From Trueperaceae bacterium (GTDB lineage: Bacteria; Deinococcota; Deinococci; Deinococcales; Trueperaceae), in contig OZ243913.1 of assembly GCA_965213705.1 (NCBI GenBank), positions 3,904,001 to 3,968,000 on the forward strand: a stretch of DNA of 64,000 nucleotides, written 5' to 3'. Made by a program: the position numbers and the translations under genes. Positions 37,106 through 49,517 of the stretch are shown in pieces. Numbering within the stretch: position 1 is the first letter of the stretch; the number at the start of each line of letters is the position of its first letter. The notes beneath the pieces were generated by a model. The model ran no database searches. It was given only the letters and a program-made list of their open reading frames with translations, and was not told where the DNA came from.

Positions 37106-38991
37106 AAGGGTTGGGCTCGAGGGGAAACTCGACAAACTGCTTTAACAGACATGCGTAGTGACGGTTGTCGGGTCGTTTTTGTGCGTTTTTTGACCGTGGT
37201 AACCTCGGGGTAAAGTACGCTTGGGAACATCTTCGACTGAGAGGGCGAGCGTGACGACACAACCGCATACCGACCTGAAGTTCTTTACCAACGAACCCGA
37301 CGCCACCCTCTACCACCGCTTCGTTAAAACCCTCGAGTACGCTTCACACTTCGATGTTCTTGTAGGCTACTTCCGCACCAGCGGCTTCCACCGGCTTTAC
37401 CGGGCTTTGGAGCGCACCGAGAAGGTCAGGATTTTGGTCGGCTTGAGCGTAGACCGCAAAGCGTTCGAGATAATTGAACAGGTGCGCGACTCAAGCAGAA
37501 TCGACTTCGAGTCGCATGAACGCACCCGGCAAGTGTTTGTCCGCAACCTCACCACCGAGATGAGCGAGTCGGAGGACACGCCGGAGGTCGAAATCTCCGC
37601 CCGTAAGTTTATCGAGTATTTAGAGTCCGGCAAGCTCGAGCTGCGCGCCTACCCGAGCCGGAACCTGCACGCCAAGGTCTACATTTCGCGCTTTCCCGAG
37701 AATTTCATGGAGTTCGGTAAAGTTATCACCGGCTCGAGCAACTTCTCGGAATCCGGTCTGGTGGCACAGCGCGAGTTCAACGTCGAACTCAAAGACCGCC
37801 CCGACGTGGAGTTTGCCCTTGCAAAGTTCGAAGAACTGTGGGCCGAAGGGGTGGACATTTCTCAGGAGTACGTGGACACGCTGCTCACAAAGACCTGGCT
37901 CTCGGACCAAATCACGCCCTATCAGCTTTACCTCAAGTTTTTGTACGAGTATTTCAAAGAGGACATAAATATAGACGAGGATGTGGACCTCTTTTTGCCT
38001 GAGGGTTATATGGATTTGGCGTACCAGAAGCAGGCGGTGTTAGCAGCTAAGAAAATAATCGAGGCTTATGGTGGCGTGTTCATCGCGGACGTGGTTGGTC
38101 TCGGCAAGACGTTTATCGCGGCGCTGCTTCTGCAGCAACTGCCGGGCCGCAAGCTCGTCATTTGCCCGCCGGTTTTGGCCGACTATTGGAAAGAAACCAT
38201 GCACCAGTTTTACGTGCCGGGTGTCGAGGTGGAGTCTTTGGGCAAGCTCGAGCAAATCTTGGAGCGGGGCGTTGAAAAGTACAGCACGGTCGTCATCGAC
38301 GAGGCGCACCGTTTCCGCAACGAACTCACCCAGGGCTACGAGACGCTTCACAAGATTTGTCGGGGCAAAAAGGTCGTGCTGGTCTCGGCGACGCCCCTGA
38401 ACAACAAGCTCGGCGACATCTTGAGCCAGCTCAAACTGTTCCAACCCGGCAAACAGAGCGCCATCCCCGGCGTGCGCAACTTAGAAGCGTTTTTCAAAAC
38501 GTTGCAGAAAAAGCTCGACAGCGTGGACAAGGACGACCCTTCGTACTTAGAACTGGTCGAAGAAACCTCCAAAGAAGTGCGGGATAAAGTCTTGAAACAC
38601 GTCATGGTACGGCGGACGCGCACCGAAATCAAAAAGTATTTCAGCGACGACTTAGAAAAGCAGGGGCTGCGCTTTCCCGAGCTAGCCAGTCCAGAGCGCA
38701 TCATTTACGAGTTCGACGGCAACATCGAAGAGGTGTTCAACACGACCATCGGTCTATTAAAAAGCTTCACTTACGCCCGCTACACCCCCCTCCTCTACCT
38801 GAAAAAAGGGCTGGGCGAGTTCGAGTTGCAGTCCCAGCGCAACATCGGCGGTTTTATGAAGGGCTTATTGGTGAAGCGTTTGGAGAGCAGCTTTTACGCC
38901 TTCAAGCAAACCGTAGACCGCTTCATCACCTCCTACCAGAACTTTCTTCACATGCTGGAGGGAGGAACCGTCTACATCAGCAAAAAGGTCG

Positions 38992-39770
38992 GGTAGTGGC
39001 CCACCATCAACTGACAGCAGCACGCTCAAGATTGTAGCGGACCAAGAACAGATGCAAGCAAATGAGGTGCATGTGTTCGGACTTGGAGAAGGATAAGGTC
39101 TTTCTGACAAAGCGCGCTAGGCGTTGGCGGATAGTATTGTTAAAGCGCTCGACGTGTGCTGTAAGCCCTGAGTCTTTACCAACAGCTTGATGCTGTTCAT
39201 CGGGAACGACGGCCTGATAAGCTTCCCAGAAGTCACTAAACACCGTGCCTTGTTTATAAGCATCTGGGATGTTACGCCAAAGTTTTTGACAAGTAGCAAT
39301 GCCACGTCCACCTACAACACAAGCGACCACCTGGCGTGTCTGCTTACAAAGCGCTATCCAGGCCCACCGTTTGTTACGTCTACATCGAACAAATGACCAC
39401 ATCTCGTCGAGTTCGAGTTGCACCGCTTCAGGGTTCTCGGGCGTAACCAGTGTGGCGCTAAGCGGCGGTGTCGTCGCGGCTTTTTTTGAGCCATTTCGCT
39501 ATTGTGGTGCGGGACACGCCGAATGTTCTGGTCAGCCCACGCATACTAGAGCGCTCCTGATACGACTTCAGTATCTCATCTTTCTTCGCTTCGCTGTACC
39601 CTTTAGTGCTCGCGTTCTCGCGACTGGACTTGCCGCACGCTCGACACAGGTACTTTTGCTTGCCGTTTGGTGCATGACCGTTCTTGACAAGCTCTTCGCT
39701 CTCGCAGTGGCAGCAACGTACAACTTTGGTGACCATTCCTTAGCTTATCAGTCTTTGCTAAACCACTACC
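38992..39770 (-). mobile_element. IS1-family insertion sequence, 779 bp
   Basis: Imperfect 23-bp TIRs starting GGTAGTGG; 8-bp TSD AAAGGTCG at 38984-38991 and 39771-39778. Confidence 0.95.
39007..39736 (-). CDS. insAB: IS1 transposase InsA-InsB joined by -1 frameshift
   Basis: InsA zinc ribbon (CCHC...CRAC) and HTH at 39458-39736; A7 slip site at 39481-39487; InsB ELDEMWSFV, SDFW, VERFN. Confidence 0.9.
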
Positions 39771-42700
39771 AAAGGTCGATGTCTACGACCTGCTGGACGG
39801 GGACGACGAAGAGAGGCTGTTGAGTTTGGTCGAGCAGGACAAGGTACAAAAGTACGCCGCTACCGAGTTCAAGTCCGACTTTGCGACGAAGTTGCGCAGC
39901 GACCTCGCGCTGCTTCAAACCGTGCAAAAGATGTGGCGGCGCATAGAAGACGACCCCAAGTTGGGGGCCTTCGAGCGGGAGCTTACGAAAAACCCGCTGC
40001 TCGAGGACAACAAGGTCATCGTGTTCAGCGAGTCGAAGGAAACGGCTCGCTATCTCTACGAACAGCTTGAAGACCGCTTTCCGAACCAGGTCTGCTTTTA
40101 TGCCAGCGGGGGCGGCGTCTACGGCGGGCAAACTTACAGCGTCGGCGCGGCCAGAGAGCTTATCCAGGCGAACTACAACCCGAACCACAGCAACCCGCGA
40201 GACGATGTCCGCATTCTGATTACCACCGACGTGCTGGCCGAAGGCATCAACCTCCACCGCTCGAACACCGTCGTCAACTACGACCTGCCCTGGAACCCGA
40301 CCCGCGTGCTGCAACGTGTCGGGCGCGTGAACCGCGTCGGCACCGAGCACAAAACCGTCTACGTGTTCAACTTTTTCCCGACCTCGCAGAGTGACGAGCA
40401 CTTAGGGTTAGAGGGCAACATCAAAGCCAAGCTGCAAGCGTTTCACGACACGTTGGGCGAGGACGCCAAGTACCTCTCCAGCGACGAAGAGGTCTCCACC
40501 CACGAGCTTTTCGGCGAGAAGTACGCCGACACGCTTTACCGCAAGCTCACCGACAAGGACGCGCTCGAGGCCGAGGAAGACGAGGCGACCGAACTCAAGT
40601 ACCTCAAACTCATCCGCGAGGTCCGGGACGAACAGCCGGACCTGTTCGAAACCGTCAAACGCCTGCCCAAAAAGGCGCGGAGCGGCAAGACGTGGCCGCA
40701 GGCGGAAAACGGGCAAGACCACCTGCTGACCTTTTTTCGCAAGGGCAAGCTCAAAAAGTTCGTGCTCGGGCGCGGCCAAGGCGAGCCGGTTGAACTCACC
40801 TTTTTGGACGCCGCCAGAATCGTCGCTTGCCGCCCCGAGACCGAGCGGTGCCAGGTGCCGAGTCCCTACTACAGTCTGCTCACGCGCAACAAAGAAGCGT
40901 TCAAACACGTCACCAGCGACGACCCGGTAGACCTGAGCGGCGGGGGCGGCGTGACCAACGAAAAACACATCTTGCAAGTGCTCAAATCCAGGGAGTTTCG
41001 GCACTTCAAGGGCTTTACCGACGAAGACGAACATTTTCTCAAGGCGGTACGCGAGGCGCTCGAGGCCGGATTGGTCGCCAAAAACACCGCCAAGCGCGTC
41101 AAGACCGACCTCAAAAACAGCTTGCAACCGCTCAAAGTCCTGGCCGTGTTGCGCAGAAACTTAGACGTTGCCCAGTTTCGGCAAACGGATGCAGAAGAGC
41201 ACCTGGACCCGCGTGAAGTGATTTTGTCCGAATACCTGGTTAGCAGTGAACCCGTAGGGAGTGAACCAGCATGAGACCCCAAGAAGCCGGCACCTTAGTC
41301 GAGGCCACCTTCAACCACAGCTATGACGAAGGGCGCTTCCGGCTGTTCGCCCGCAACTTGTTCGGCGACTTGGAGGAGAAAAGCGACCGCTGGGCCGGGA
41401 GCTATGTGCCCGAAGCTTTCCGGGGCTTTGTCAGCCAGTACGGGCGCCTGGGCAAGTTCGAGGACGCCGAGGGCTACAGCGTGGACGTGCTGGCCGTGAA
41501 GCTCAAAAGCGCCGCGCAGTTGGAACGCGCCCGTAGCGCCCAGCGCAACTTCATTGCCCGGTACTTAAACGGCGGGCGCGGCGACGTGCTCAGGGACGCC
41601 GCCCTGGTCGCGTTTTACGCCGACGACGACCCCGACTGGCGCTTCTCGCTCGTGCGGATGGACTACAGCCTCGACTTAGAGCACAACAAGCTGCGCAGAG
41701 ACCTCACCCCGGCGCGGCGCTACTCGTTTCTGGTCGGCCCGAGCGAGCGCACCCACACCGCCCAAAAGCAACTTTCCAAAGTCCTGACGGGCGACGCCCT
41801 CCCAACCCTGACCGCCCTCGAGCAAGCCTTCAACATCGAAACCGTCACCAAAGAGTTTTTCGAGAAGTACAAGGAGTTGTTCTTAAACCTCAAAGAGGCG
41901 CTGGACGCGCTGGTAGACGAGAACACGCGCGTCGCGCAAGAGTTCACGGCCAAGGACATCGACACCGCCAACTTCTCAAAACGCCTGCTCGGACAAATCG
42001 TGTTCCTGTACTTTTTGCAGAAAAAGGGCTGGCTGGGCGTGCAGCGTGGTGCGGCCTGGGTCGGCGGTCCCAAAGACTTTTTGCAGCGCCTCTTCGCCGG
42101 TGACTACGTCCGGTACGGCAACTTTTTCAACGACATTTTAGAACCCCTCTTTTACGAAGCCCTGGCCGTGGAGCGCAGCGAGCACTACTATTCCCGCTTC
42201 GACTGCGCCATCCCCTTTTTGAACGGCGGTCTGTTCGAACCCATTGGCGGCTACGACTGGGTGAACGTGGACATCCCGCTAAAGAACGAATTATTTGAGG
42301 ACATCTTCGGCGTGTTCGACCTCTACAACTTCACCGTGCGCGAGGACGAACCGCTCGACAAAGAGGTCGCGGTAGACCCCGAGATGCTGGGCAAGGTGTT
42401 CGAGAACCTGCTGGAAGTCACCGACCGCAAGAGCAGGGGAGCCTTTTACACGCCCCGCGAAATCGTCCACTACATGTGCCGGGAGAGTTTAATCAACTAC
42501 CTGGACACCGCGCTCAACACCGTCAAGCGCCCCTTGGCAAAGCAAGCCGCCAGCCAAGACGCCCTGTTCGGCAAGCCCCAGGCCCGACAAGAACCGTTGT
42601 ATGAAGAGGTCTACGAGGCGCGTGTGCCCAGAGAGGACATAGAAGCGTTCATCCGCTTAGGCGACGTGGCCCAGGAGCACGACGCCACCACGGTTCAAAA

Positions 42701-42890
42701 GGGCAAAGAGACCGAAGCCTACAGCTTCAAAACGCCCGAGAGCATCCGCGGGAGTGCCGGGGCCATCGACGACGCGCTTGCCAGCATTAAAATCTGCGAC
42801 CCGGCCATCGGTTCGGGCGCGTTCCCGGTCGGGATGATGAACGAAATCGTGCGGACACGTTCGGCGCTGACGCCGTACTTAGCTGCGGCC

Positions 42891-42985
42891 CCCCTTAACA
42901 AGGGGGGTTGGGGAGATTTAGCCCAGGCCACTCGAGAAGCAGCCGACAGAAGCAAATCCCCCCTTAGTCCCCCCTTGTTAAGGGG
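42891..42985. repeat. Palindromic REP/MITE-like element inserted in frame in the methyltransferase
   Basis: 17-bp IR ccccttaacaagggggg / ccccccttgttaagggg; encodes PLNKGGWGD...SPLSPPLLRG. Confidence 0.8.
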
Positions 42986-44070
42986 CGAAGGGAACGGACG
43001 AACCCCCTACGACTTCAAGCGCCACGCGATTCAAGAAAGCATTTACGGCGTGGACATAGACGCGAGCGCGGTGGACATCGCCAAGCTGAGGCTGTGGTTG
43101 TCGCTGGTGGTGGACGAGGACGACTTCGGGACGATTAAGCCGCTGCCGAACTTAGGTTACAAAATCGTCGAAGGCAACTCGGTGTTGAGTTTGGAAGGAG
43201 CCATCACCGACGGGCGTGAAATGCGTGACCTCGAGACCCTCAAACGCGCCTACTTCGGCGAGACCCGCGCCGGCAAAAAGCAAGAACTGAACCGGCGCAT
43301 CGACCAGACCCTCACCAACATCTTCCGGTCGGCGCAAGACTTCGGCTCGAGGGCGAACTTCGACTTTCGCATCCACTTCAGCGAGGTGTTTCACCAGCAG
43401 GGCGGCTTCGACGTGGTGATAGGCAACCCCCCCTACGTGCGCCAAGAAGCGCTGGGCGACTTGAAAGACCTGCTCAAAAAGTACGAGGCGTACCACGGCA
43501 GCGCCGACCTGTTCGTGTACTTTATCGAACTGGGCGTCAAGCTGCTCAAAAAGGGCGGCACGTTTGCCTACATCGTGGCGAACAAGTGGATGCGGGCGAA
43601 CTACGGCAAACCTCTTAGAGCGTGGCTCAAAAAGCAGCAACTTTTAACCATCATCGACTACGGCGACCTGCCCGTGTTCGAGACCGCCACCACCTACCCG
43701 TGCATTTTGTTCGTCGGCAAAGACAAGCCGAACGAAGAGGTGCAAGTGGTCAAGATGGAAGAACTCGCCTTCGAGCACTTGAGTCGCTATGTTGACGAAC
43801 GCAGCTACGCACAGACGCAGAAAGACCTCGAGGACGGCGGTTGGTCACTGGCAAACAGAGACGCGCAGAAGGTACTCGACAAAATAAGCAAGGTCGGCGT
43901 GCCCTTAGAGCAGTATATAGACGGAAAAATCTACCGTGGCGTTCTAACCGGACTCAACGAAGCCTTTGTGATTGACGAAGCAACCAAAAATAAGCTGATA
44001 GCCGAAGACCCCAAAAGCGCCGAAGTCATTAAACCGTTTTTAGCGGGGCGAGACATCAAAAAATTTTCAC

Positions 44071-44110
44071 CGCCGAAAAGCAAAAATTAGATAATTTTTG
44101 CTTTTCGGCG
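44071..44110. repeat. Perfect 19-bp inverted repeat with 2-nt spacer
   Basis: cgccgaaaagcaaaaatta-ga-taatttttgcttttcggcg. Confidence 0.95.
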
Positions 44111-44743
44111 AAATTTTGACATTGAGGAGTATCCTGCAATTAAAAAACACTTGAGCCAGTTTAAGGACAGACTCACACCCAAACCGAAAGGTTGGACGGG
44201 TGCAGACTGGCAGGGGCGGAAGCCAGGGTCTTATAAGTGGTATGAAATTCAAGACGCAGTTGATTACTATGAAGAGTTTGAAAAGCCTAAAATTATGTAT
44301 CTTGTATTTCAGGTAAGACCCACCTTTACCTTTGACTCGAGCGGAACTTACGGAAATAATGCTATCTGGATTATTCCAAAGGACGATAAATTTTTGCTGG
44401 GAGTTCTCAATTCAAAAATAGGTTGGTTCCTTATTTCTAATTACTGTACTCAAATCCAGAACGGGTATCAGCTTATCTTCAAATACCTCGGTCGAATCCC
44501 CATCCGCACCATCGACCCCTCCAACCCCTCGGACAAGCAAAAACACGATTCTATGGTGGAACGTGTCGAAACCATGCTCGCGCTGCACGAACAAAAGGGG
44601 GCGGCGACGGAGCAGGGCGAGCGCGCCCGCTTGGAGCGGGAGATTGCGGCGACGGATGAACAAATCGACACGCTTGTCTACGAGCTTTACGACCTGACGG
44701 ATGAGGAGATTGCTATGGTCGAAGAAGCGGTGGCGGGGTAGCG

Positions 44744-44992
44744 GTGAACTACGACATCGGCTTTAAACCTCGAGCGGTCAAAGACTTAAAAGCGCTAGAC
44801 CAGCGCGAAAGCGCGCGCATATCTGAAAAAATAGAGGCTATGCGGGATAACCTGACGGGAGACGTAAAAAAACTTACCGACTTTACGCCGGAGTACCGCC
44901 TACGTGTCGGCAACTACCGCGTCCTCTTTACCCTCGAAGATAATAAGGTTGTCGTTTACCGCGTTCGTCACCGCAAAGACGTGTATAGATAA
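44744..44992 (+). CDS. RelE/ParE family toxin
   Basis: RAVKDLKAL, KKL, YRLRVGNYRVLF, RHRKDVY. Confidence 0.9.
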   Translation: MNYDIGFKPRAVKDLKALDQRESARISEKIEAMRDNLTGDVKKLTDFTPEYRLRVGNYRVLFTLEDNKVVVYRVRHRKDVYR

Positions 44993-45006
44993 GAAGGGAT
45001 TGTTCC

Positions 45007-45210
45007 GTGGCCGATTTAGCTTTGCATCCAGAGTTCTTAGTCAAAAATGGCAAGAGAGAATTTGTCGTACTGCCTTACGAAGAGTTTGAGGCTTTGCAAG
45101 AAGTTCTTGCCGACGCGCAAGACCTCATCGACTTGCGAGCAGCCAAAGAAGAGGAAGGTGACGCCCCTACGCTGTCGCTGGAGGAAGTCAAGCGGCAGTT
45201 GGGCTTCTAG
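45007..45210 (+). CDS. Phd/YefM-like antitoxin
   Basis: KNGKREFVVLPYEEFEALQE; acidic tail ending SLEEVKRQLG. Confidence 0.8.
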   Translation: MADLALHPEFLVKNGKREFVVLPYEEFEALQEVLADAQDLIDLRAAKEEEGDAPTLSLEEVKRQLGF

Positions 45211-45257
45211 TTTGAAGGAGCAACCTGTGGGATTTGGACCGTCAAAGGGAGTATCGC

Positions 45258-45509
45258 ATGAGCGTTGAAGAAGCTGTTGTGGAAAAACTGCGAATGTTGC
45301 CCCCTGAGCGGCGGCGGGAGGTGCTCGAGTTTGCGGAATTTTTGGAGAGCAAGTCACATTTGCCGATAGACGAGTTCGAGCGGCTGCAAACTTTTATCGA
45401 GGACGCTCAGGACTTGTTCTTGCTTAGACAAGCAAAGGCCGAGGACGACGGCGAAAGAATTTCTCTGGCTGAGGTAGAGGCGCGTTTGGGCTTGACTGAA
45501 CAGCCGTAA
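45258..45509 (+). CDS. DUF2281-like domain fused to antitoxin-like C-terminus
   Basis: LPPERRREVLEFAEFL; C-terminal half parallels the upstream antitoxin. Confidence 0.7.
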   Translation: MSVEEAVVEKLRMLPPERRREVLEFAEFLESKSHLPIDEFERLQTFIEDAQDLFLLRQAKAEDDGERISLAEVEARLGLTEQP

Positions 45510-45519
45510 GCTATGACGC

Positions 45520-45579
45520 GAACTTTACGACCTGACGGACGAGGAAATTGAGATTCTGGAAGAATCTATCTCTAAATAG
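45520..45579 (+). repeat. Second copy of the methyltransferase 3' end (ELYDLTDEEIEILEESISK*)
   Basis: ctttacgacctgacgga identical to 44685-44701. Confidence 0.85.
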
Positions 45580-45582
45580 GGA

Positions 45583-47478
45583 CTATTCTGCTTCCGGCGC
45601 TGTGTAAGCCTGAGCCTGGTGAGATGGACTTTCAGGATAACGCATGAGCAAACGACCGTCAGTCACCAACCTACTGATGTACTGCCGAATGGTTTGCGGC
45701 TTACGGTTTAGCAGCTTTGCGATTTCACGAATGCTGAGGTGTTTGCCTCGGGCGGCTTCGATAATTGCTAGTTCCAACTGTTCCTTCGGCATCCTTTTGT
45801 ATTCACGCGCCCTCTGAATCAGCGGGTGGGCCTGTTGATTTTGAGGATTAGCCTGTTGACCTGCCTGTTGATTTTGAGGGCTAGCCTGTTGATTTTGAAG
45901 ATTAGCCTGTTGACCTCGCGTGAAGAGATTGGGTCTGTTGTCCAGCACATCGACTAGCTGATAAGTTGTGCCGCTGGCTACACCGCTGGAAACCACGAAA
46001 CCGTTTTCCTTTAGCCCACGCAGCATTTTGGTGATGTCGGCAGGGTGCTGGTCGCTCATTTCTTGCAAGCGTTTGTTACTCACCGAGCCTTCGCGCAAGG
46101 CGGTAATCAATGCCAACCTTTGGTGTTGGTCCAAAGCGGTGTAACGGTTACCGAATTTTGCCGCCAATATTTCGGTGAACTCTTCGGGTACGAGGCTTTG
46201 CATGGTCAGCTCGAGGGTGACTTGTTCGGGCTGGGTGTTTTCGCTCAAAACGGGGTCTCGCCAATCCTGAGAACGCCAGGCCCGCAGAATCTTGGGGATA
46301 CCCGTGCCCGCACGGTCAGCAGCACCAATCAGGTAAAAAATTTGGAAGAGCGCGGGATTGCGCTGATCGCTTTGTCCCCCTTGCTCGTTCAAAATCACAC
46401 TTTTGGGCAGCCGCAAGCGACCGGGGTTGACAAAGACGAACTTGTGCGCGTACTTGTGAATAAGAATACCTGTAGTAGAGCTGTGGTCGGCATGAACGAG
46501 GGCATTCACCAGGGCCTCGCGCAAGGCGCTGTGAATAGGTGTGTTGTCCACCCTACGAGCGCCTTCTAGCTGAAAAGGAACTTTTAGGTCGGCCGTCAAC
46601 TTGGCATAAACACGCCGAAAGAAGTCGTACAAGTTGCCCGACCATGCGCCGTCGTTGATAACCCGGTCGGTCCAGCGTTGCTCGGGGTCTAGGTTACGCT
46701 CTTGATAGTCGAGCTGAAAGTGGGGCAACTTCTCCTTGAGCGCCAAATGATTCCCAAAGGTGAGGAGGCCTGCCAGTGTCAGCCCCTCTCGTCCAGTCTG
46801 CCGGTCGCGCCGCCACGCCCCTATAGACGTAAGAAAGTCCAAATCATCCTGGGTAGCCCTGTTACCGCCAGAACGTTCTAAACGGAACTCTTGACGGTAG
46901 GCGTCTAAGGATTCCCTACTCAGGTCACTCAGCGTGTAGTGCTCGAGGATGTCGTTGTCTTTGGTATCGTCACTCGCCTCGGCAAACATCCGGCGTACTG
47001 TCGCCTCACTGCAAAGGTGGTCGCCGTCGTTGAAGCGCTGGTAAGTACCACGCATAGGATTGTCGTTGATGTAGACAGGGCGGTCTTTGCGGGTAGCAGG
47101 TGGCACGTGAAGGATGAGCAGGTGGGCATCCTCACAAACGAGATGTTGGACATGCTGATTAGTTAGGATATTTTTGTTGACCTTGCTCTTATTGTTGACT
47201 GTGTTCCAGAAGTCTTTTTCTAGGTTTGTCACGCTCTGAAGACCTATGGGCTGCAACGTGCCGTCGTCAAGTTCCTTAGCACCGAGCACTATCTTACCGC
47301 CTTGGGTGTTGGAGAACGAACTGTAACTTTCCCAAATACTCTTGGGAAGTTTGCCCTCACCCTCTCTACCTCGCGCATCTTTTACTTCACACTGATACGA
47401 CTCCGTCAGGGTGTTCAGCTCATCACAATCTATCTGTTCCGGGTTGTTTCGTCTTTGAAATGTAGGTGCTGCACCCAT
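45583..47478 (-). CDS. AlbA_2/Schlafen-like domain + HATPase_c_4 + winged HTH protein
   Basis: EVK...YSSFSNTQGGKIVLG; REALVNALVHAD; RNP; DRAGTGIPKI; C-terminal HTH. Confidence 0.8.
   Translation of the reverse strand: MGAAPTFQRRNNPEQIDCDELNTLTESYQCEVKDARGREGEGKLPKSIWESYSSFSNTQGGKIVLGAKELDDGTLQPIGLQSVTNLEKDFWNTVNNKSKVNKNILTNQHVQHLVCEDAHLLILHVPPATRKDRPVYINDNPMRGTYQRFNDGDHLCSEATVRRMFAEASDDTKDNDILEHYTLSDLSRESLDAYRQEFRLERSGGNRATQDDLDFLTSIGAWRRDRQTGREGLTLAGLLTFGNHLALKEKLPHFQLDYQERNLDPEQRWTDRVINDGAWSGNLYDFFRRVYAKLTADLKVPFQLEGARRVDNTPIHSALREALVNALVHADHSSTTGILIHKYAHKFVFVNPGRLRLPKSVILNEQGGQSDQRNPALFQIFYLIGAADRAGTGIPKILRAWRSQDWRDPVLSENTQPEQVTLELTMQSLVPEEFTEILAAKFGNRYTALDQHQRLALITALREGSVSNKRLQEMSDQHPADITKMLRGLKENGFVVSSGVASGTTYQLVDVLDNRPNLFTRGQQANLQNQQASPQNQQAGQQANPQNQQAHPLIQRAREYKRMPKEQLELAIIEAARGKHLSIREIAKLLNRKPQTIRQYISRLVTDGRLLMRYPESPSHQAQAYTAPEAE
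45830..45916 (-). repeat. Gln-rich tandem repeats (QQANLQN-type, mostly 21 nt) in linker
   Basis: Repeated gcctgttgattttga/gcctgttgacct units. Confidence 0.85.
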
Positions 47479-47765
47479 CAGAAAATTTTAGCATCTCCCG
47501 ATCCAGGGCATTTACCTGAAACGTAGCAACGCTCGAGCGGATGAAAACGGCTTGAGTGTTGTTACGGGCGTTGAAAAAACCCTGTCGAGGGCGCAACGAG
47601 AGGAGCGCGCTGGTATCCCGGTGACTCTAAGGGAATTGAATCTTAGTTCTAAAATGTAATCGGATGCAATCCAGATGCAATTAAATTGAAAAATTAAGTC
47701 CAGCACGGCAAAAGATACAAATCCACCGAAGCTCAAACATGCAATAAATAGCCAGTAACAGAGCA

Positions 47766-47996
47766 TCTGTCCCTTACACATTGAGCCAACCCTGGCGACC
47801 GAGCCACCTATGGGATGGTTAGAATGGTTAACACATGCTGGACCCACAACGACAAAAAGCTACAGAGCAGGGCGAGCGCGCTCGCTTAGAGCGCGAGATT
47901 GCGGCGACGGACGCTGCTATCGACGCGCTTGTTTATGAGCTTTACGACCTGACGGACGAGGAGATTGCTATTGTCGAAAATTCTACAGCGCGGTAA
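47766..47996 (+). pseudogene. Third, longer copy of the methyltransferase 3' end with decayed 5' side
   Basis: ATEQGERARLEREIAATDAAIDALVYELYDLTDEEIAIVE* vs ATEQGERARLEREIAATDEQIDTLVYELYDLTDEEIAMVE; frameshifted NPGDRA..MV..V..ML upstream. Confidence 0.9.
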
Positions 47997-48031
47997 GGTA
48001 AGGGCAACATGAAGCATTTTTGTGATATAGC

Positions 48032-48060
48032 TTGCCAAAATATTCTATATATGTTATATT
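48032..48060 (+). promoter_or_regulatory. Promoter with overlapping imperfect palindrome for the TAC operon
   Basis: TTGCCA-17 bp-TATATT with TGn extension; aatattctatatatgttatatt. Confidence 0.55.
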
Positions 48061-48076
48061 ATGGTTGGTACGATTA

Positions 48077-48463
48077 GTGAAGGAGTCTTGGCGTGTTGCT
48101 TACTTCAAAGATGAGAAAGGTAGTGTTCCCGTCAAGGAATTTTTCGAGCTACCGAGCGTTATAGGTATTACTGAAGGTGAGAAGAAAGTGTTTAAACAGC
48201 GTTTAAAGTGGGTACGGCAAAGAGGGTTAGGACTTGCTGAAAGGCGGGGTGATGTTTTGGAACATCTCAAGAACGAAGGAAACCTTTATTCGCTTCGCAT
48301 TCCCAGCAAACCGAACAACCCTCGCGTTCTACTCTGCTCTATTCCAGGCAGTAATCAATTCGCTTTGCTGCACGCCTTTAAAGAGAAAAACTCGCGCGAT
48401 TACAAGAGAGCAATCAGTGTAGCCAAAGGACGACGAGACCGACTTCTCGCAACTGTAAAGTGA
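48077..48463 (+). CDS. HigB/RelE (Gp49-like) toxin
   Basis: WRVAYFKDEKGSVPVKEF, LYSLR, LLHAFKEK, IxxAxxR; GTG start chosen. Confidence 0.8.
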   Translation: MKESWRVAYFKDEKGSVPVKEFFELPSVIGITEGEKKVFKQRLKWVRQRGLGLAERRGDVLEHLKNEGNLYSLRIPSKPNNPRVLLCSIPGSNQFALLHAFKEKNSRDYKRAISVAKGRRDRLLATVK

Positions 48464-48480
48464 AGACTGGAGCTGTACTC

Positions 48481-49014
48481 ATGGCAAAAGATGAAACTAC
48501 AAACAATACCTACTTGGACTCTGAAACGGACGTGTTGGAGCATTTGGGCAGCCTGATTCCTGATACGCCCGAAATGCGCCGCGTGGGTAAGCAGGAGTGG
48601 TTCCGCTTGCTGTTGACGGACGCCATGATAGAAGCGCGCAAGCGTGCCGGTTTGACGCAGAAAGAAGTCGCTAAAGAACTCGGCGCAACCCAGAGCTGGG
48701 TGTCCAAGCTCGAGAGCGCCAACCACGACCACGGGGTCGAGTCGGTGGTGTCTCACCTGGACGCAGTCGGGGCTGAACTGCTGATGGCGGTCAAGGTCGG
48801 CGATGATTTGATTCAGGTCGAAACCAGTGAAGAAGATGTCCTGGTGAACATTCCTGTCTGCTACCAGGATGAGGCTTTAGAAGCCGGTATGACCTTGCGA
48901 GATTTCATCTGCTCACGGCTCGAGGAATACCGTTGGAGAGATGGTGTGAGCGTTTTCGACGTGCCGGAGGGCTTCGCTCGGTTTGATACTGAAGAGGGCT
49001 ATACCCTCCGCTGA
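48481..49014 (+). CDS. HigA-like Xre HTH antitoxin with C-terminal extension
   Basis: ARKRAGLTQKEVAKELGATQSWVSKLE; about 70 extra residues after the HTH domain. Confidence 0.8.
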   Translation: MAKDETTNNTYLDSETDVLEHLGSLIPDTPEMRRVGKQEWFRLLLTDAMIEARKRAGLTQKEVAKELGATQSWVSKLESANHDHGVESVVSHLDAVGAELLMAVKVGDDLIQVETSEEDVLVNIPVCYQDEALEAGMTLRDFICSRLEEYRWRDGVSVFDVPEGFARFDTEEGYTLR

Positions 49015-49517
49015 TGCCCACAGCAAAACCGAAACCTAAAACAGTACAAGTCACGCCCGAAGCCTACAACACCTTTTTGCAAGGGCTCGAGCTGAAACGG
49101 GTGCGACTGGCTTCCGCCAAGGTGAAGACCGAAGTAGACCATCCTGCACCCTCCGAAACTGAAATTCGCGCCGAGTACGAACGGGATTTTGAAAATGATG
49201 AGGGTGGTTTTGAAGCTTTTGCCAGCTATAGGCTCGAGTTTGTGAAAATAGAAACCGGTGAGGTTCAAGGTGTTGTCGAAGCGACCTTCGGGTTACAATT
49301 CGACAGTCCCGAGCCAATGCGTGAAGATATTTTTGAAATCTTCGGTGAGTTGAACTTGAAAGTCAACTCCTGGCCTTATGCCAGAGAGTACGTGCAAACC
49401 AACATGGGGCGGATGGATTGGCCGGGCTTCACGCTACCGCTTATGAAACCCTCGCTACCCAAACCTGAGCCTGCAGCAGTCGCCAAGCCAAAACGAAAGA
49501 GCAAGAAGAAAGTTTGA
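49014..49517 (+). CDS. SecB-like chaperone
   Basis: Beta-rich core followed by WPYAREYVQTNMGRMDWPGFTLP, like SecB PYxRE...P.l.LP; TGATG coupling. Confidence 0.75.
   Translation: MPTAKPKPKTVQVTPEAYNTFLQGLELKRVRLASAKVKTEVDHPAPSETEIRAEYERDFENDEGGFEAFASYRLEFVKIETGEVQGVVEATFGLQFDSPEPMREDIFEIFGELNLKVNSWPYAREYVQTNMGRMDWPGFTLPLMKPSLPKPEPAAVAKPKRKSKKKV

Follow-up and report, generated by a model that had tools for sequence, protein, structure and literature searches.

Organization of the locus

A type IIG-like restriction-modification (RM) gene followed by two further copies of its own 3' end was found in a 64,000-nucleotide window of the genome of a Trueperaceae bacterium (positions 3,904,001 to 3,968,000 of contig OZ243913.1, assembly GCA_965213705.1). 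This genome of 4,246,949 bases is referred to below as G000; the other G numbers denote genomes of relatives, and L numbers denote loci. The 17-mer CTTTACGACCTGACGGA occurs at 44685, 45523 and 47940, always on the plus strand and in direct orientation, and has no other match on either strand of the genome (three in total), which confirms the first-pass annotation, made from the letters of the window, that the methyltransferase 3' end is present three times. All three copies encode ELYDLTDEEI, with only synonymous differences in this motif, and each runs to an end of its own before its stop codon (AMVEEAVAG, EILEESISK and AIVENSTAR in copies 1, 2 and 3, respectively), again as first described. 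Judged from these sequences, the copies are 3' ends of the type IIG-like methyltransferase gene, and they are called tails here; those lying outside the gene are called orphans.

Copy 1 (44500-44741, plus strand) is the live gene end. Copy 2 (45510-45579, plus strand, by alignment) is a short orphan of about 50-70 nt, and copy 3 (47770-47996, plus strand, by a DNA profile) is a long orphan that begins near the junction between the target-recognition domain (TRD) and the tail and is frameshifted on its 5' side. The profile aligns copy 3 from 47784 over approximately 213 nt (envelope approximately 227 nt) and places 1-nt gaps in its 5' part, so the earlier reading of about 230 bp with 5' decay holds; its identity with copy 1 is 82-87% over 120-137 nt. 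A TRD remnant upstream of copy 3 was suspected by eye and found no support in the profile. In the AlphaFold model of the last 216 amino acids of the methyltransferase (helices 146-171, 175-199 and 204-215; mean pLDDT 89.7), the tail is a predicted helical hairpin of two long helices plus a short terminal helix that follows the TRD fold. A structure search with the tail returned no solved match except designed coiled coils, and the predicted TRD fold matches M.BseCI and CamA.

The methyltransferase gene itself (41271-44741, plus strand, 1156 codons; Pfam Eco57I and TaqI_C) matches PADLOC REase_MTase_IIG with an E value of 7.7e-255 and joins a gamma-class adenine methyltransferase and a TRD in one chain, as type IIG enzymes do. 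No nuclease family was found in this chain by Pfam; a PLD-SNF2 helicase gene lies upstream (37221-41274, plus strand; PLDc_2, SNF2 and Helicase_C), split by an IS1 insertion sequence (38992-39770; InsA, DDE_Tnp_IS1) with an 8-bp target duplication on both sides. The helicase orthologue is one intact open reading frame (ORF) of 1069 amino acids in G004 and 1090 in G275, and both genomes keep helicase and methyltransferase intact. In G000, codon 940 of the methyltransferase is an in-frame TAG at a perfect inverted repeat (44071-44110) with 19-bp arms, whose 2-nt loop supplies part of the stop; homologues carry an aromatic residue and leucine at this position. Because of the IS1 in the helicase and the TAG in the methyltransferase, the RM system appears to be inactive at present.

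The hairpin is at the left boundary of the TRD that was swapped; relative to homologues, its right arm carries one extra codon, which suggests a template-switch mutation. The sequencing data were assembled contigs from two runs of one sample, both of which recovered the stretch, and run X3 covers next to none of it. A contig of run X1 equals the window across the hairpin; contigs of the deeper run break there, and one of them has two differing letters near its end, which may be a flipped allele or a fold-back artefact. A conserved hairpin switch was rejected, as 0 of 80 homologues has such an inverted repeat at the stop position; one of the 80 has a different, 11-bp hairpin nearby. A REP-like (repetitive extragenic palindromic) inverted pair is inserted in frame in the methyltransferase at 42891-42985, and its relatives are scattered in the genome and in homologous genes.

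The variable TRD (44060-44500, plus strand) is not common to the G004 and G275 orthologues, with which it shares 34-36% amino acid identity, as against 73-87% for the methyltransferase part; for G004, the values are 87% for the methyltransferase part, 36% for the TRD and 55% for the tail. The GC content at third codon positions (GC3) is 0.36-0.48 over codons 901-1050, compared with about 0.8 in the gene body and 0.78 in the tail. This dip points to a TRD that was replaced and a tail that was left in place.

A different module follows each tail, as the first-pass annotation had proposed, except that its second antitoxin proved to be a fusion and that the gene behind copy 2 lies on the opposite strand. 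Behind copy 1, a relE/parE toxin and a Phd/RelB antitoxin (44744-45210, plus strand, Pfam) start 3 nt past the tail stop. They are followed by a chimeric antitoxin (45258-45509, plus strand) with a DUF2281 N-terminus and a second RelB-like C-terminus; by comparison with G004, its two halves were joined by a deletion of approximately 525 nt. A contig of run X2 (depth 132) at 45449-45496 continues into a G004-type array junction, and thus an organism with that array type is present in the sample. The AlbA_2-ATPase-HTH gene (45583-47478, minus strand, 631 amino acids, Pfam) is convergent on copy 2 and ends 3 nt from its stop. Behind copy 3, a HigB-like toxin (Gp49), an HTH antitoxin and a SecB-like chaperone (48059-49517, plus strand, Pfam and profile) are encoded; the SecB-like protein matches Rv1957 (5mtw) in a profile search with an E value of 3.5e-6. 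A RelE-fold toxin, an HTH antitoxin with an extension and a SecB-like protein in one operon form, at the sequence level, a toxin-antitoxin-chaperone system. The sigma-70-like site TTGCCA-17-TATATT before the toxin gene (48032-48060, plus strand) is a consensus match only, and four such sites were found compared with 3.4 expected in shuffles.

Recurrence and nature of the displaced tails

Homologous loci were collected from species genomes of bacteria and archaea (set 1, n=80) and from metagenomes (set 2, 73 usable loci after 7 of 80 were set aside for a missing long ORF), and the pooled 153 loci were scanned with one DNA profile. The counts are not independent, since several metagenome loci are repeat samples of the same locus. 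Set 1 holds 17 extra tails in 12 of its 80 loci, and set 2 holds 41 in 23 of 73; in the pooled scan, there were 55 extra tails in 35 of the 153 loci, all of them downstream and direct and none reversed. Over 500 kb upstream in the same 153 loci, the profile found no tail. Downstream 3' copies follow 24 of 102 RM genes; among the other ORFs with 300 codons or more, used as controls, only 5 of 375 have one. Hence roughly a quarter of the sampled homologues whose flanks were long enough have a displaced end, which makes the tail a specific and countable joint. When other parts of the gene served as query, only REP-like matches were returned. Within G000, the profile has five matches, namely two IIG genes, two orphans and a weak one at C1:2578061, and for this genome the tail is therefore excluded as a dispersed repeat. 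Neither a genome-wide repeat unlinked to RM genes nor a single tail with invariant downstream genes, either of which would have spoken against the first-pass annotation, was found in the genome or the 153 loci. As far as these sequences go, the pattern is real and general, in many bacteria and archaea.

The weak match (L140:9060-9175) is a diverged tail-like remnant beside alaS with no RM gene. On mobile-element records, 34 plasmid and one phage matches to the tail were found, nearly all single; they lie mostly under annotated methyltransferase genes and some under none, and a role of the tail as an attachment site of mobile elements was rejected.

The orphans begin at varying points, from -44 to -231 nt relative to the gene end; their 5' border is therefore not fixed but does not go beyond the TRD junction. 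None of the 55 reaches into the TRD, with a profile that detected held-out TRDs at 20% simulated decay and is weaker for distant TRDs. Between 19 orphans (two of which aligned poorly) and their own genes, the ratio of nonsynonymous to synonymous differences per site (pN/pS) is 0.20, which implies that the orphans diverged mostly as coding alleles; the own gene is the best match of 15 of the 19. For 7 of 50 orphans, the orphan and the DNA behind it match a live gene end and its following DNA elsewhere at 83-98.5%, which identifies orphans as displaced former gene ends. In L220, for example, the second orphan together with the next 1.6 kb has 97.8% identity to the live gene end in L225. The tail differences between L220 and L225 are confined to the 5' half, and likewise the orphan of L233 and L248 differs at its 5' side and is identical at its 3' side; both mosaics fit the pattern predicted for a crossover inside the tail.

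The relation between specificity and cargo was examined in 22 Methanoculleus-like alleles, L210 and L211 having been dropped from 24 for aberrant ends. Homology between alleles is lost twice, first where TRD and tail meet (for most close alleles at -236 to -251 nt) and then at the stop codon, and the terminal residues of the tail travel with the cargo. Fourteen pairs share the TRD and differ in the first cargo, 12 share the cargo and differ in the TRD, and only two share both, which look like repeat samples of one locus. TRD and cargo are thus shared separately, and the two swaps are usually separate. These counts, together with the GC3 profile, do not bear out as a rule the earlier proposal that incoming alleles swap the specificity domain and add cargo in the same step. 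One pair, L220 and L225, which differ in TRD and in 2.4 kb of cargo between flanks 94-98% identical, fits it, as either one double crossover or two events. The companion proposal, that the post-TRD tail is the recombination anchor, is supported by the two homology breaks and by the orphans being former ends.

Related arrays contain the same parts. The relE-relB unit of copy 1 also stands behind the tail of the second IIG gene of G000 and behind a 39-nt stub in G004, and the two IIG proteins of G000 are 25-28% identical. The second IIG gene (L139:8950-10950; G000 C1 at about 2,745-2,747 kb) is followed by a stack of toxin-antitoxin (TA) modules with a tail stub that ends at tRNA-Arg. The module order is relBE1, hicBA-like, stub, relBE2 behind this gene, and hicBA-like, stub, relBE1, DUF2281/PIN, relB2, tail, BrnT in G004, where the label hicBA-like is our assumption from motifs, without a Pfam hit. 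By sequence comparison, therefore, relatives carry the same relBE modules at tail joints in permuted order. In G274, two 222-nt tails, 99.5% identical, flank a PIN module, the second tail with its cargo shows 93% identity over 985 nt to the end of the live gene in G275, and synteny indicates that the gene body was lost. In G157, a HigBA-SecB module lies between the IIG gene and its helicase with no orphan.

Probable recombination at the tail and competing explanations

Based on the results presented above, the last 40-240 bases of this RM gene family probably form a joint for homologous recombination, which lets defence genes be gained and swapped with no dedicated integrase, a reading that we favour with some reserve. 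The crossover between the gene and donor DNA from an allele related to it would fall within the tail; the gene would obtain a new end and new genes, and the old end would be pushed downstream as an orphan. The enzyme would be of the RecA type, with no dedicated recombinase, and the donor either a linear molecule of tail, cargo and tail or a circle of tail and cargo that had been excised. A cassette with a tail on each side would be able to propagate itself. One and the same tail would anchor TRD replacement on the right and the gain of cargo on the left, and both swaps would come about at once by a double crossover with one point in the methyltransferase body and the other in an orphan tail. 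The first flanking tail may, as a guess, have been gained by a homology-facilitated illegitimate join. The orphans, their position and orientation, their matches to live ends and the free reassortment of TRD and cargo across the tail are direct observations, and a ComEC-family gene in the genome also counts in favour of recombination at the tail.

On the other hand, several findings weigh against it. No crossover or circle was observed in the data, which are assembled contigs; the listed contigs of the sample likewise include no junction of one tail copy with another, although rare variants are lost in contigs, which are therefore silent on circles. The window copies are only 78-87% identical to one another, which is low for efficient RecA exchange, and all three share the local form LYDL, absent in relatives, so that the order of events is not derivable from one crossover each. 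No orphan was detected in 118 of the 153 homologues, many of which are on short contigs, and the neighbours right after the stop differ even in loci without an orphan, from which it follows that plain replacement is commoner than accretion. Tails without an intact upstream RM gene stand at five loci in G265, G274, G343 and G008 (two loci). At the loci of close AlbA homologues (10) and close SecB homologues (19, one of them from G330), there is no tail within 1.5 kb of the gene, which makes these general accessory modules rather than dedicated cassettes. No empty allele of the exact locus was found, and the congener G001 is without the whole region. Finally, DNA self-comparison revealed one upstream exception, L072:1-2099, in which a 2-kb methyltransferase-TRD-tail fragment, cut by the contig end, is joined directly to a tail; this fragment is possibly a stored alternative specificity module.

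That long duplicate in L072 would also suit a different account, in which the orphans are one-off scars, made by an illegitimate join or by tandem gene duplication and subsequent deletion and never reused. The decay of orphans by frameshift and insertion agrees with it, and homology-facilitated illegitimate recombination (HFIR) has been proposed for the immunity arrays of type VI secretion systems (T6SS) in the available text of PMC5361080. We regard this account as unlikely, however, because no orphan reaches the TRD despite the sensitivity of the profile, and pN/pS lies below the value of about 0.5 that we estimate for neutral decay of an exact duplicate. In addition, copy 2 and an orphan of G004 share their left junction but differ in end and cargo, and the near-identical tail pair of G274 points to exchange at an existing orphan.

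Recombination at the tail must also be weighed against site-specific accretion. On this view, the tail would be the target of an integrase whose gene lies elsewhere or has disappeared, and each insertion would rebuild the end of the gene, much as happens when islands integrate at the 3' ends of tRNA genes. Every orphan does keep the extreme 3' end and direct orientation, and the locus opens a region of about 230 kb, missing in G001, that ends at tRNA-Met with a tyrosine integrase (C1:4171003). We nevertheless consider it quite improbable: the 5' starts vary instead of giving a fragment of fixed length, the DNA core is free to vary at synonymous sites between taxa, and in place of an integrase per element, the scanned cargo ORFs (72, 59 and 49 proteins) contain no integrase or resolvase family except for insertion-sequence and Y1 transposases. 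In agreement with the first-pass annotation, which had seen no recombinase nearby, no tyrosine integrase or resolvase occurs in the window; PF00589 has seven matches in the genome, none in the window and the nearest approximately 200 kb away. With regard to the large region itself, the flank in G001 runs straight to tRNA-Met, and the same tRNA-Met lies about 230 kb further in G000, beside the integrase. The segment absent from G001 at this point (C1:3941124-4171760) contains a tRNA-Met 3' fragment at 4072036 and probably consists of stacked islands.

A third alternative is very improbable. It assigns the illegitimate joints to Y1 (RAYT-like) transposases working on REP hairpins and leaves the tail with no role beyond guiding the pairing. 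In its favour are the palindromic REP-like hairpins in or beside orphans of L047, L081 and L094 and the Y1 transposase genes in the L077 and L081 arrays. Against it, no such hairpin occurs at the copy 2 and copy 3 junctions of the window, the genome's three Y1 matches are short or broken and all at least 190 kb away, and most arrays contain neither hairpins nor Y1 genes.

Comparison with known systems and implications

Integrons use IntI and palindromic attC sites to collect small cassettes, often of TA or defence genes, with the newest next to the fixed site. The present locus resembles them in being an array of small accessory cassettes, often TA or defence, with a repeat at each joint. It differs in that there is no IntI, the joints are direct coding remnants of variable length, and inspection of the sequence, carried out without an attC model, found no inverted repeats at the joints. 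Of the integron-like array described at first, then, the array shape stands and the rest does not.

The remaining comparisons refer to the parts of the cited papers that were available. In Rhs C-terminal displacement (Jackson et al. 2009, PMC2935791), homologous excision and reinsertion occur with no dedicated recombinase, and direct-orientation gene-end fragments of variable length lie downstream of an intact gene and are shared by close alleles only, as here. In Rhs, a variable tip follows the conserved core in the same protein, and the orphans are stores of other tips; here, by contrast, the anchor is the conserved end after the TRD, the orphans lack a specificity domain (with L072 as a possible exception), and the payload consists of separate TA and defence genes. 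Since the orphans store no variable domain, the locus works like Rhs displacement and yet is not a member of that class. The Vibrio cholerae T6SS effector-immunity arrays (PMC5361080) are similar in that sequential insertion at one anchor displaces older genes downstream; both homologous replacement and HFIR are invoked for them and no integrase is known, but that account has no repeated gene tail at the joints, and the cargo there is cognate immunity genes. TRD movement (Furuta et al. 2011, PMC3077401) likewise replaces TRDs by recombination at conserved flanks, but in S subunits with two TRDs, and the text available describes neither cargo capture nor orphan tails. The pneumococcal tvr (SpnIV) locus (PMC6265443) shares an RM locus, direct repeats and TA genes with ours and shows excision and reintegration, whereas it has its own tyrosine recombinase and shuffles stored type I TRDs; at the present locus, there is no linked recombinase and there are no stored alternative TRDs. 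The third module has the same three-gene layout as the HigBA-SecB systems (bioRxiv 10.1101/2024.02.24.581848), and an anti-phage role of the copy here would be putative. No description of RM-tail arrays was found in the literature searched, which included the available part of a 2025 RM review (PMC12707154) and lay largely outside subscription journals and wholly outside supplements. PMC2884548 contributed nothing further.

The identified TA cargo across the arrays comprises RelE/ParE, HicAB, PIN, BrnT, MNT-HepT and HEPN, and the identified defence-type cargo comprises Mrr, GmrSD-HNH, SIR2, TIR, YhcG and AlbA_2; many ORFs match nothing. Because this cargo is mostly TA and defence-type, the array would be a putative accreting defence locus, and it addresses the open question of how single genes are added to defence islands when no integrase is involved. 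The order of orphans records the history of insertion. A broader proposal, which we advance tentatively and hold to be rather less probable than not, is that the IIG tail has been selected, in bacteria and archaea alike, as a cassette platform that needs no recombinase: genes flanked by two tails would propagate themselves and dock at RM genes even as little as 25% identical, a surviving stub would supply a ribosome-binding site and a coupled start for the next gene, and populations would shuffle methylation specificity and back-up TA defence through one joint. Genes between tails without a Pfam match are candidate defence genes, which gives a handle for discovery; in the array L188:6700-12400, with five orphan tails, this applies to all eight ORFs (Pfam 0/8, PADLOC 0/7).

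Stubs of 20-40 nt were also seen directly before the next start codon in L021 (+992 after the gene end), L074 (+222) and L130:10015-10053, and these stubs contain a purine-rich, Shine-Dalgarno-like stretch.

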